DNA from: Saccostrea cucullata
Lineage: Eukaryota
Reading direction: 5' to 3'
Assembly (NCBI RefSeq): GCF_032062105.1
Contig: NW_026931863.1
Location: 248,001 to 312,000 of the forward strand
Length of the DNA: 64,000 nucleotides
Positions 55,569 through 63,692 of this stretch are shown in pieces; position 1 is the first letter of the stretch, and each line of letters opens with the position of its first letter. A model generated the notes under the pieces. The model saw nothing but the letters and a program-made list of their open reading frames with translations, was not told where the DNA came from and made no database searches. Made by a program: the position numbers and the translations under genes.

Positions 55569-58500
55569 ATGGCAGCAGTTCGTACTGTTGTCTTGATATT
55601 GGTGTTTACAGGAATTACAGCTGAAAGTGAGTACAGCATAATGTAATTCAATGTGTATATCACTACAAAATATATCGAAGCTACTGTTTACAGCAGTTTC
55701 ATTTCTCTACTGACAAACTGACTTTAAGGTGACTAAAATACTACATTTCCATTCTACATGTATTTTAAGGAATTTTCATGTACGTTGATTATGTTACTTT
55801 GATATCGTTATTGATATAGATAGTTTTTGGTGACAAATCACTATACTTTATTTTAATATATTTTACCGTCTCGTAACCCGAGGTGGAGGAATTTCTATAA
55901 GAAGGATGTTGGTGCACATCGTGTTTTCCTCATATTTTGGGCTTTAAAAAGGTGCACATTATATATAATTGTATGTTGATCATAAGATTTTTATGCAGGT
56001 TAATATTACAACATTACACTGGGGGCAACAATACAGGTCGATGTACTGTATTTAATTGTATCTTCAACGAATATCGTCGTCAAACCAAAATTCACAAATA
56101 AAATGCAGTAAGGTTGATTACATTGCAAAACTGACATAGCAACAATGTCACTGGCAAAAGTCTTTTATTTTTCACATCACACGAATACTTTTAGAAAATT
56201 GATACTAAATTATATGTTCACAGAAAAAAGTTCCGGAAAATATGAGCCTTCTGAAACTAGTTTTATCTGCTGCAGAAAACTATAAACTTGCTTATCTTTT
56301 ATCTAGAAATAAAAAAAAATTATCGAGATTTCAAATATAGAGTTTTAGTTGCTTAGTTTCTCATGATAGCCATATTGATACTTGCTTTCTCAAAATACCC
56401 AAGTTCAGAGATTCACTGGTTTTTCAATCTAACACAGAAACCGTGAGTTATTAATTTGAGAGAATGGAGGAATATGTAGAAATAAGACTCTACTTAACAT
56501 TTTATCTATATTTACTTTGGGGTGAATGATAGAAGGTAGATATGAGAAACTAGTAAACGAGTAAACGTTAAATATTCAGATATCAGTTTGTCTTTATATT
56601 TGACAATCACAAATTCATTCAGCTGATTTGCTATGGAAGCAGAATGGCTAAAACATGTTGATGCTGAACATTTTATATGAAGCCCGCTAAAGCGATGAGC
56701 CGATGACACGGAGACAGAATTCAATAGTTTAATTTTTTAAAGTTACATTTCCAAACCGTTGGATCAATTACACACCATATCTGTTGTCCTTTAAAACAGT
56801 TATTTACCTTTTAGTACTGTCCAGAATCAAAGGCCAGATTGAACTCGCATTGTTAAAGAACTAAAAATGGTTTCCCTTTTTATCTAAATTTTGTTATTGA
56901 TAAGATTTGACAGCTGATTGCCTAGCCAAAACAAGAAAAGCAAACAATGTAGAAACGCTGTGCACGTATTTAGTTTAAACCCAATCATTTTTGTGTCTTG
57001 TAATTTCAATTTCATGCTATGTAAACCAAGGAAGAAAAACTTATTAAAAAGTTGAACTAACGTACGTGGTCTTGTTTTGAAAAAAAAGTTAACAAATGTA
57101 GTAATTGTAAGTCCATTTTAGAAGGAATGTTTTTGGGTTATGCTTGTCCCTTTAAGCAAACAACTTTCTCCTTGAATTAATGTAATTGACATTCTATATA
57201 TATATCATAATGGTTAAGAGTAAATAAACATAAGTCTTATAATGGTAAGCAGCGTTTATTGACATTGAATTCTGTTGGTATATTATTCTTTCCATTAATC
57301 TTTCAAAAGTAACTGTATACCGGTTATTTTCAGTTCACAACCATAAAACCCAACCGCCTAATAGACTAGTGAAAATACATATATTTCTATATATATGTAA
57401 GAAAATTTTTAAAATGATTTTGCTAATTGCCAAAATCTTAATTACTCTTTAAAAATATATACATGTATATTCAAATACGCAGTCTTTTGAAAATCTTACG
57501 ATGCCTATACAAGGGTGATTTCTTTATTGTTCGCCCTTTCCCCCGTTGAGCCAATAAACCATTCAGTTGTCTTTTTGATGTTTATACGTGCTTTTAGAAA
57601 CGACAAAAAGTGTTTCAATTAATGTTAATAGAGTTTTATGATAATAATATAGAATGGACCAATAAATTACCGGGTATCTTATTCCTAAAAAAATTACCGG
57701 GTATCTTATTCCTAAAAAAATATATATAGTATGTAAAATTTTATAGATCCCAGTATGATCTTAAGATATATTTGTATGTGCAAAATTTAGAATATATAAA
57801 TTGAAAGAAATTATCTTAATAATAATAATAATAATAAAAGCTCGTTTTCACTCAAATTCTATCGAATGAAAAATGTTTATTAAGGCAATTAGTCAGATTG
57901 TCAAGACTACAACGAAGCAAAAAGATAACAAACCAATCACTGTTTGACTTTCTTAATGGAGAATTTTATTTGTCAATTTTAATATTTTTTCCTGCAAGTC
58001 CTATCCAACATAAATAAATTATTGGTTATTGGGTGTATTATCTTCTCTATTGTAGAGGTGGTGTTCGACTCGGATTCCTTCACTGTTGTCGATCCATCAA
58101 CGCTCAGCAATGCCGCAGAATATGCAGATCCAACCGACTGTGGTACGGTAACTCAAATACACGCGTACAGTGAAACTCATTTATAAGGAGCTCACTTTTA
58201 TGGAATTCTTTGTTACAAGAAACTTGTAACAAAGTCTATAAATGGATTTTTCACTTTGTTTCTTGCATGGATATAAAGATCCTCGATTTTAAGAAAGCAA
58301 AAATTGATGGTCAATTGAATTCTTAATTACCGAATTTAACTTGTAGTTTTGTTTAAACCTTCTAAAAATTGGCTATCAAAAGTTCTCTAATTTGAGACAT
58401 TTTCTAATTTTAGTTTAAATTAAATTTTATTGTCAGGAAGCAAACTATACAGTATGGCTGCCGAGAAGGATAAGAACATGGCGGTGAGCATTAGAGTAGC

Positions 58501-61500: not shown

Positions 61501-63692
61501 TTTACTTGGAGGCCAGAAGAGAGGCTGCATTGCGTTAGTATTTTGACCTAAATATACAAACTTACATGGTATGTTCTTTTCTGTACATATGTTCCCAAGA
61601 ATAAAATTGATTTCTTATGCTTTAACATGCAGAGTCGAGAATTGTGGATCCAGACGATATCAGAGAAGCATGCCTTGACCCGGATGTTCCCCAGAAACAA
61701 CACATCCGGTATAAATACAAGGAACCAAAGGTTATTCAAAGGAAGAGGAGAAGGAGGAGACAAACTGCCGACTCGTGTGTTCCCACTGAGACAACAGATT
61801 TCTGCACGTCCACACTCAAACACAGACAACAGGTAGTGGATGACCTCTGGAAGACGATGTCGAAAGATAAACACATGTACCATGAACCTGCGTCAGAGGC
61901 GGAGGACGCCCTGAAAGGCTGTCTCCTGACTTGTGGCACATGTTTGGAAGGTATTCATTTCTTTTTCCGTTTGCAGGGAATGAGTATATTGTACATTTTG
62001 AATTCATTCAATTGACGGTAGAAGCAATTTTCAATTACAGATTTGTGAAAAAATCTTTGAAAAAGAAAAAAAGACACAAAGATTAAGATATTTTAAAATT
62101 TTTCCTTTTGTTGCAGTTTTGTTCACTCTTGATAGCTGGTATATTTTTTTGTTCACACTTACAGTTATACCAAAACCGATTTTGATTTTAAAATATCTTT
62201 GTTAATCTGTTTTGATAATTTTCAAGGAGCTATCTATGAGAAAAAGTTGGAACACTGTAGTAACTTGATTCACTGGATGCCATTTGATCTGATGAACGAT
62301 CAAAAAGATATGACCAACTTCTTTGCACGAGACAATATGGAGACCTTCGCTCTTGCCTGTGAAGGCGGTGGCCATTGTCTTTTGAGGGCACCCATTTTCT
62401 CTATTCTTGGTAAGAGCCTTCATTCTTGAATATTGACAATGTCATTAATGAATCAAATAGATAAGCTGATACCTATAGAATTAGATCTCTTTTGGGAGCA
62501 TTGTTTCTCCGTAGAGCTATCTTTAGCTATCAAATATGTCATTCGTAATTTCCAATCCAACATTTTCTGAAAACTTTCATTATGTTAAACCCATCAATAT
62601 CACTGTTTCCCTCCTGAAGCTCCCAGTGTAAAGCTCCGTTATCGGCCTGACCCTGACAGGAGTGTTATTGAGGACCTGTATTCCTCTGAGGAGAACCCCA
62701 GTCCTGTCCTTTCACTCTTGGAGGAGCTGTATGCCATTCACGCTATAGGAGTAACCAAATTCTGGGTCAAGGACGAGAAAGAAATCAGTTCCATGAAGCT
62801 TGCCCTACGTGTATGTTGTTTTATAAACGTTTTACGTTAATAGATTGTAATGATAGAGAGAAAATAAGAATTTGTAAAGTGAAATATATTTGTATCATTT
62901 TGTGATTTTTTCACAGTATATTTTTTAAAAAAAAATAAAACTCCATAAATTACTTCACTTTTTAATACAGTATTACAAAACACCATTCACTTTGGTATCA
63001 GTAGATGAAATTAACATTTATGCATTTTGGTGCACCTACTTCTAGTTGTTGCTTGATTTTTGCAAGTTTGAAACCTCAAATTTTCTTCCATATTTTTTCT
63101 TCCTAGGCGGCACTGATGTACAACCCTAATGTCACAGAAGTCCATATTCACGTCACGCAGTCCAACAGTAAATCACCCGTACAGAGCGAGGTGGAGAAAT
63201 TCGTCAAAGAATTTGCCCAAGGTGGCTGTCCCACTTATACCCGGGAGATCCTGGCTCCCTTTAGGATATTAGATCCGCCTCACAGTAAGTATATGGATTA
63301 CTAGAAGAGTATAGAAGTCTCAAATTCGAAATAAGTATTTGAAACTTCAGACAATAATCTTCGACTTAAACATATAATAAAAAATATTTTAACAAGTATT
63401 TGAAACTTCAGACAATAATCTTCGACTTAAACATATAATAAAAAATATTTTAACGAGTATTTGAAACTTGCTGAGTGGTGGTAATCTGCATATCAAACCT
63501 ATGCAAAAACAATTCCTTGTTTCTTTAAAAAGCAAATGCAAATATATCAGACTACTTTTTAGTTTTTACCAAATAAATTATTTTGTAGGTGTGAGGAAAA
63601 GAAGCGCTGCTGCTCTGAGACAAGAGAGTGAAAGCATGATGCGGGCAAGTTTCAATAGGGAACAGGCCGATTTTGCAAGAGAGTTTCCATAA
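55569..63692 (+). CDS. Secreted ~925-aa protein: signal peptide, M15-like, Hedgehog-N-like, M15-like, furin-type site, Cys-rich C-terminal domain
   Basis: 17 GT-AG exons joining in frame (2778 nt): 55569-55626, 58056-58142, 58437-58603, 58731-58901, 59114-59255, 59382-59523, 59758-59832, 60117-60205, 60327-60497, 60647-60825, 60927-61071, 61156-61533, 61633-61950, 62227-62409, 62620-62810, 63107-63284, 63589-63692. Signal peptide MAAVRTVVLILVFTGITA. HhN-like RVMSPRL..ITVEEAWNE..SLRAEGR..LASLAQFA..ADHV..HLLVSSKK. Polybasic site RKRRRR. Confidence 0.85.
63333..63469. repeat. 61-bp tandem duplication (2.3 copies) in the last intron
   Basis: AAGTATTTGAAACTTCAGACAATAATCTTCGAC... at 63333, 63394 and partially at 63455. 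Confidence 0.9.

Follow-up and report, generated by a model that had tools for sequence, protein, structure and literature searches.

The DNA analysed here, a window of 64,000 nucleotides from the oyster Saccostrea cucullata (contig NW_026931863.1, positions 248,001 to 312,000), carries towards its end a gene of 17 exons that encodes a class I Hedglet. In the predicted protein a Hedgehog-like (Hedge) domain stands between two degenerate modules of peptidase family M15A and is followed by a cysteine-rich C-terminal domain, whose predicted fold is that of ADP-ribosyl cyclase, CD38 and BST-1. Hedglets are a named and barely described family (Jagers and Roelink, 2021; PMC8052667; this and the other papers cited by PMC number were drawn on in part), and the four-domain anatomy reported here for them is new. 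The features of the gene are listed below by position in the window, with the corresponding amino acids (aa) of the protein.

55569..63692, forward strand: class I Hedglet gene, 17 exons, open reading frame of 925 aa
55569..55626, forward strand: exon 1, predicted signal peptide, the sole strongly hydrophobic stretch of the protein in a hydropathy scan
58056..59386, forward strand: module 1, degenerate M15A, aa 26-216, exons 2-5
59402..60681, forward strand: Hedge domain, resembling the N-terminal signalling domain of Hedgehog (HhN), aa 222-385, exons 6-10
60688..61634, forward strand: module 2, degenerate M15A, aa 388-608, exons 10-12
61740..61760, forward strand: polybasic furin-type site RKRRRRR, aa 644-650
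61761..63593, forward strand: C-terminal domain, predicted ADP-ribosyl cyclase/CD38-like fold, aa 651-899, exons 13-17
63594..63692, forward strand: dibasic site RKR (aa 900-902), C-terminal helix and stop codon

All introns of the gene model are GT-AG and the reading frame is stop-free; every motif quoted in the original prediction, an annotation made from the letters of the window alone, lies in frame. The 925 aa are 100% identical to P0001 (931 aa; NCBI: Saccostrea cucullata LOC134233763), whose NCBI start lies 6 codons upstream of the open reading frame modelled here, and residue numbering follows P0001 throughout. Splicing is documented by contigs from a close relative, in which 15 of the 16 modelled introns are joined (four of four runs) and intron 6 shows loose ends; two of the runs are on record as RNA and two are guessed to be so, and contigs of this kind attest presence, not level or tissue. 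A single contig of 2554 nucleotides covers exon 4 to exon 17. Ten of the 16 introns are in phase 1, so phase-1 introns near domain borders are weak evidence. By inspection, no intron position is common to the two modules, nor is the intron within the Hedge core of the oyster Hedgehog (Hh) gene shared. A genome search found one class I Hedglet, a paralogous class at four more loci and a separate true Hedgehog gene. Nothing useful came from Pfam scans of single exons (14 open reading frames) and of the whole oyster protein, from phmmer against PDB, from a whole-protein Atlas search, from an exon-12 profile against PDB or from tblastn against phage genomes.

The segments on either side of the Hedge domain had been proposed to form an internal repeat. 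This is borne out by profiles of orthologs and not by the single oyster sequences, which align without significance (score 37; 94 of 1000 shuffles as high) and give no second match in a self-BLAST of the protein. Profiles of aa 25-216 (25 rows) and aa 388-608 (32 rows) match each other with an HHalign probability of 99.63 (score 160.5, 192 columns), the best of 30 column shuffles reaching 18.5; two intact M15A proteins had been included in the alignment used for the first comparison, which was rebuilt without both. The repeat unit, of about 190-220 aa, is longer than the exons 3-5 and 11-12 first suggested and takes in exons 2-5 and 10-12, and the copies are not in tandem, as had been thought, since the Hedge domain stands between them. 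Strands and helices follow the same order in both modules of the model. Two cysteine positions, whose conservation had been claimed, are indeed kept: each in 30 of 32 module-1 rows, and in 57 and 58 of 63 module-2 rows.

Both modules descend from M15A peptidases. When 1.84 billion proteins were searched with a profile built from 12 full-length orthologs, 912 matched at E <=0.001; the best 150 of these include two short Peptidase_M15_3 proteins with intact motifs, P0143 and P0152 (E 1e-17 and 8e-17; Pfam Peptidase_M15_3 E 4e-16 and 1.5e-15), whose nearest named relatives are proteins of two foraminifera, Bolivina argentea and Globobulimina turgida, with YcbK-type proteins next. A set of intact eukaryotic M15A proteins matches module 1 and module 2 with HHalign probabilities of 99.73 and 99.81, and a bacterial YcbK/M15_3 set (60 of 75 short proteins used) with 97.0 and 97.9, the latter at scores of 69 and 83 against 20 or less for shuffled bacterial controls. 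Residues 31-201 of the full-length model superpose on the M15A prototype 1LBU, the zinc DD-peptidase of Streptomyces albus (Z 11.0, root-mean-square deviation (rmsd) 2.3, 116 residues aligned). Phage M15A peptidases rank top in a viral structure library, and Atlas features place module 2 with phage M15_3 clusters at 0.93. In a tree of 73 rows all 58 degenerate modules fall into one clade (99/98), beside 8 intact M15A proteins, foraminiferan ones among them (97/86); a single clade of module-1 copies is neither shown nor rejected by the approximately unbiased test (p-AU 0.076). The intact sister proteins are fused to lysozyme, M23 or C-type lectin domains.

Among intact proteins, those closest to the Hedglet modules form an M15A subgroup, represented in foraminifera and in further records, whose zinc triads are mostly intact (EukProt P0171, P0173, P0174, P0175 and P0177, from B. 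argentea and G. turgida; also P0172, P0143 and P0152); some of its members are fused to C-type lectin, M23 or lysozyme domains.

The M15 identity proposed for both copies is therefore supported, and the further suggestion that they link M15 enzymes to Hedgehog is not. The adjoining Hedge domain matches the eukaryotic and bacterial M15A sets with probabilities of 13 and 2.2; against module 1 it reaches 78, over 53 columns, and against module 2 it reaches 2.9. Because the modules match intact M15A proteins far better than they match the Hedge domain, the chain is, as judged from these profiles, a fusion of two separate lineages of one fold and not an M15-Hedgehog intermediate. Triplication of the Hedge domain was likewise ruled out by the profile comparison, the modules barely matching it.

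None of the three peptidase-fold domains has a full zinc triad. In a survey of 145 aligned instances, freed of near-duplicates and thinned to one in eight of the bacterial rows, the triad of active peptidases (H-x6-D plus a distal His) is complete in 22 of 23 intact controls, 1 of 32 module-1 rows, 0 of 63 module-2 rows and 0 of 27 fragments; 2 of the 32 module-1 rows are mislabelled. The arginine of the SGYR motif helps to hold substrate in M15 peptidases, and it is missing from P0042, the sole module-1 row with a complete triad. In the oyster the ligand positions read L135, V142 and L183 in module 1, H513, E520 and F568 in module 2, and R336, K343 and L378 in the Hedge domain (the H141, D148 and H183 sites). 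Both M15 copies are thus degenerate, as originally predicted, and the second retains its first His; the last His is, as claimed, absent from both in this oyster, but 18 of 32 module-1 rows keep it. None of 33 Hedglet-type Hedge domains has the triad, the sponge protein retaining two of three ligands.

The middle domain, rightly called Hedgehog-like from the start, superposes on HhN structures with Z 19-20 and an rmsd of about 2.3 over about 146 residues. In the oyster copy, which lies below Pfam detection, most calcium-site residues are gone as well; orthologs score above the Pfam cut-off (PF01085), and many of those in class I keep the acidic residues of the calcium site. Over its full length the protein is 81% identical to P0004, which by eye matches residues 275-379 of Crassostrea virginica XP_022317995.1, an entry in the tree list of the PMC8052667 supplement. 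Orthology to that listed sequence, together with a Hedge domain devoid of catalytic zinc residues, identifies the oyster protein by sequence as a Hedglet. Pfam scans of the protein and its orthologs detected no Hint domain, and the Hedge domain is internal, not placed directly after the signal peptide. The features of Hedglings (a VWA domain, cadherin repeats, a transmembrane segment) were likewise absent from Pfam scans or hydropathy. In a Hedge tree that sampled one Hh domain, three BacHh domains and no Hedgling, Hh and BacHh stand apart from all Hedglet domains (100/98).

Hedglets were named from a Hedge core of about 105 residues, and their distribution was called enigmatic (Jagers and Roelink, 2021; PMC8052667). 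The kinship of Hedgehog with DD-peptidases is already in print (PMC6027127), as is a sponge expressed sequence tag with Hedge but no Hog (PMC2362128); the consulted part of PMC6040629 adds nothing on the Hedglet family. The term 'hedglet' occurred in one paper only of the searched literature. No description of the flanking modules or of the C-terminal fold was found in that search, which left most subscription journals outside; unopened supplements (for example that of PMC3482391) or automatic structure annotations may list such proteins. A separate observation concerns P0170, in which a hydrophobic N-terminus, an intact M15A domain with full zinc triad and a Pro/Ser/Thr linker precede a Hint domain (E 8e-42): this is a Hedgehog-type layout with an M15A enzyme in place of the Hedge domain.

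The C-terminal domain, missed by the original prediction together with the furin-type sites and the pre-animal distribution, is a Cys-rich region of 249 aa directly after RKRRRRR. With the full-length model as query, Foldseek places CD38 next after Hedgehog (E 4e-4). Folded alone, the domain gives a confident model (predicted local distance difference test (pLDDT) 94, predicted template modelling score (pTM) 0.89), and comparison with 48,161 chains (VIA) ranks Aplysia cyclase first (Z 11.3, rmsd 4.2, 197 of 252 residues aligned), then CD38 (Z 11.0) and BST-1 (Z 10.7), with the next fold at 7.3; Foldseek finds CD38 with E 9e-5 for this lone model. An ADP-ribosyl cyclase/CD38/BST-1 fold is accordingly predicted from the models. 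The domain is the most conserved of the protein in 6 of 6 pairwise comparisons, with 41-48% identity to distant orthologs.

Its catalytic residues were mapped by reading motifs against the residue order of CD38 and the exons of oyster CD38-like genes, not by a significant alignment. On that motif reading the position of the catalytic Glu (E226 in human CD38) is Leu837, Leu being present in 56 of 64 domains, and the catalytic Glu has apparently been replaced; none of the positions 833-846 holds a conserved Glu in the 64 domains. In human CD38, mutation of this Glu abolishes activity (PMC3329556). Position 766, likewise read from the motif as the Glu of the signature, is acidic in 39 of 64 domains and Leu in the oyster; at position 829, 61 of 64 domains carry Glu or Asp. 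Invariant polar residues are Asn800, Asn844, Arg884, Lys720 and Arg672. ADP-ribosyl cyclase domains have been described as tips of bacterial toxins (PMC3482391, PMC3417536), and those of polymorphic toxins as having passed to animals, choanoflagellates and animals being among the holders (PMC3482391); the consulted parts of both papers contain no fusion of such a domain to Hedge or M15. The oyster also has CD38-like genes (PF02267) on another contig, with three gene starts clustered at G000:C13871:368584-410956 (L010, L011, L016-L019); the two that were examined keep Glu in the motif read as catalytic.

Basic sites border the C-terminal domain on both sides. An R-x-K/R-R motif occurs just before it in 37 of 79 sequence windows, against a background of 3.9%, and 35 of 56 have a dibasic site behind it. 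Cleavage by convertases at both places is likely, to judge from these motifs.

The full layout was found in oysters, Pinctada (duplicated), Lottia, Mercenaria, Mactra, Solemya and Branchiostoma, and outside these in P0029 of the sponge Oscarella pearsei, where trypsin and PLAT domains precede it, and in P0041 of the choanoflagellate Craspedida sp. UC1, where an M15_4 and a C2 domain do. Further records group with P0041, which is the only named choanoflagellate protein with the full layout and for which contamination is possible. In P0005 of Pinctada imbricata the four-domain unit occurs twice in one predicted protein, through merged tandem genes or a true doubling. Class II proteins, known from Haliotis and Saccostrea, have two Hedge domains and no module 1; four loci of this oyster (G000:C14548, C12878, C14078 and C20375; L014, L015), some of which may be haplotype copies, match this second class, which has two Hedge domains, one dead M15A module and the C-terminal domain.

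A Hedge-less cassette of one dead M15A module and the C-terminal domain is present in the choanoflagellates Salpingoeca urceolata and Didymoeca costata, the latter with an inserted M23 domain, and in large proteins from other records. Of 77 listed proteins that have the C-terminal domain and measure >=300 aa, 68 have an M15A-like module ahead of it; this set was found with a full-length profile, which favours proteins sharing both domains. The same cassette of dead M15A and CD38-like domain ends P0052, P0066, P0076, P0081, P0082 and P0085 (2700-4300 aa), some of which carry fn3, cadherin-like, Ig or TNFR repeats. The domains added in Hedglet-type relatives are cell-wall or digestive partners: M15_4 (P0041, and P0042 below the Pfam cut-off), M23 (P0057, from a choanoflagellate), trypsin with PLAT (P0029) and lipase (P0109).

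Since the full layout is found in a choanoflagellate and a sponge, it is likely, on sequence evidence, to predate animals. For the same reason the suggestion that Hedglets derive from Hh, made because all animals with Hedglet have Hh (PMC8052667), is disfavoured. A tree of the C-terminal domain puts Hedge-bearing proteins on one side (94/87, not starred). In the history we envisage, a cassette of dead M15A module and CD38-like domain would have arisen in pre-animal times, out of a eukaryotic M15A lineage that was itself intact; the Hedge domain and a second module would have joined it before the choanoflagellate-animal split.

As to function, the reading that we tentatively prefer, while giving it somewhat less than an even chance, is that of a secreted protein, processed by convertases at both flanks of the CD38-like domain, whose dead M15A modules bind bacterial peptidoglycan and do not cut it. 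Once the protein is secreted, furin-type convertases would cut on either side of the C-terminal domain; the modules, as putative binders of peptidoglycan, would give the protein a role in handling bacteria, in feeding or defence; and the CD38-like domain would be a released or unmasked module, probably binding a nucleotide without canonical catalysis. This reading is proposed because the modules descend from cell-wall peptidases, because fusions to M15_4, M23, lysozyme, lectin, trypsin and lipase domains recur in relatives, and because the cleavage motifs are conserved. Several observations weigh against this proposal. Of all the domains the modules are conserved least (26-40% identity to distant orthologs; the C-terminal domain has 41-48%), the SGYR-motif Arg is kept in only 7 of 32 module-1 and 11 of 63 module-2 rows, class II paralogues do without module 1, and roughly half of the relatives have no first furin motif. 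Two of the 47 rows in the alignment used for the full-length model were intact M15A proteins, which may bias module 1 towards an M15 fold; in that model the best structural alignment fell outside module 2, and none of the structural matches covers this module. In the tree, which has only 7 bacterial rows, the degenerate modules could have been drawn together by long-branch attraction. The likeness to CD38 rests on predicted models, with 12-15% identity and TM-scores of 0.4-0.5; HHalign of the domain against an oyster CD38-like sequence gave a probability of 0.6, within shuffles (C-terminal half 0.3), and the domain has no Pfam (PF02267), NCBIfam or PDB sequence match, orthologs and relatives included.

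The protein might instead be purely structural and belong to a matrix, mucus or shell. In that case no domain would have a ligand-specific role, and the modules would be pro-domains of the C-terminal domain or pack against it. A compact and confident full-length model (pLDDT 90.8, pTM 0.80) would agree with this, as would the joint occurrence of module 2 and C-terminal domain in 68 of 77 listed proteins and the loss of catalytic residues in every domain; we nevertheless judge it unlikely, given relatives repeatedly fused with cell-wall hydrolases and digestive enzymes, and invariant polar residues that could mark a binding site. Decidedly unlikely, in our estimate, is an active secreted NAD+ (nicotinamide adenine dinucleotide) glycohydrolase or cyclase that works through a relocated acidic residue and is aimed at bacteria by the dead M15A modules, as a carrier with a released toxin. 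In its favour, positions 829 and 766 are acidic in most domains, the domain is the best conserved and has convertase sites on both flanks, and ADP-ribosyl cyclase domains are said to have reached animals from the tips of bacterial polymorphic toxins (PMC3482391); set against this are the Leu read at the catalytic position in 56 of 64 domains, the lack of a conserved Glu at 833-846 and the need of human CD38 for that Glu (PMC3329556), with the reservation that its place here was mapped by motif reading. We hold it more doubtful still that the protein is a Hedgehog-like developmental or matrix ligand, in which the Hedge domain would bind Patched, Ihog/Cdon or glycans and the other domains would be scaffolds. 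The close match to HhN, the calcium-site residues of many class I orthologs and the two Hedge domains of class II paralogues speak for a ligand. The Hedge domain, however, is internal, with no Hint and no basic site to free it; its zinc triad is kept in 0 of 33 cases; most calcium-site residues are missing from the oyster copy, which also escapes Pfam; many relatives have the M15A and C-terminal cassette without Hedge, and the oyster has a true Hedgehog gene besides.

On the most far-reaching view, Hedglets may be pre-animal antibacterial proteins of carrier-plus-payload type. The dead M15A modules would dock on peptidoglycan, and convertases would free an NAD-consuming CD38-fold domain with a relocated acidic residue. 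The Hedge domain would have been in the chain since the choanoflagellate-animal ancestor, its second pre-animal home besides Hedgling, and the M15A-Hint fusion would show the Hedgehog-type design to have been built twice from cell-wall peptidases. This wider scheme is a speculation to which we give little credence.

The origin of Hedgehog from bacterial M15 peptidases is not yet settled. Hedglets, enigmatic to those who named them, now gain a domain anatomy and a candidate role that can be tested. The presence of the whole architecture in a choanoflagellate and a sponge alters the proposed order of events, and the source of the repeats is identified as intact eukaryotic M15A enzymes. The models also point to a hitherto unannotated animal branch of the ADP-ribosyl cyclase fold. 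Were the C-terminal domain to act on NAD, it would be an invertebrate secreted NAD-directed effector tied to bacterial recognition; were it inactive on NAD, the protein would consist of four dead enzymes conserved since before animals.

Elsewhere in the window, the upstream neighbour (50313-52668, forward strand) comprises a Sir2-family exon (Pfam E 8e-11) and a long Pro-rich open reading frame and is probably unrelated, and an open reading frame of 210 aa at 42782-43414 (reverse strand) resembles a rhodanese/sulfurtransferase exon by eye. The last intron of the Hedglet gene contains a short direct repeat of about 60-65 nucleotides (63307-63453).

Among known systems, the protein comes closest to the Hedglet of Jagers and Roelink (2021; PMC8052667), with which it shares its range (molluscs, amphioxus) and the loss of Hedge catalytic residues; the M15A modules, the furin-type sites and the C-terminal domain are not mentioned in the consulted part of that paper. 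Its middle domain has the HhN fold of Hedgehog (PF01085), BacHh and Hedgling, but differs from Hh in its internal position and in lacking Hint and the zinc triad, and from Hedgling in having no VWA or cadherin. With peptidase M15A (1LBU; Peptidase_M15_3/YcbK-MepK) the modules share motif order, profile homology and, for module 1, the fold, but they lack the full zinc triad; their N-terminal extension, two cysteines and C-terminal helix are common to a eukaryotic M15A subgroup (with the foraminifera Bolivina and Globobulimina among its sources) and not to most bacterial members. Finally, the C-terminal domain resembles the ADP-ribosyl cyclase family (CD38, BST-1/CD157, Aplysia cyclase; Tox-ARC) in a fold predicted to have two lobes and to match about 80% of the target, in its richness in Cys and in its presumably extracellular location; it differs in having no profile match to that family and in being part of a multidomain proprotein, unlike the stand-alone or membrane-anchored enzymes.

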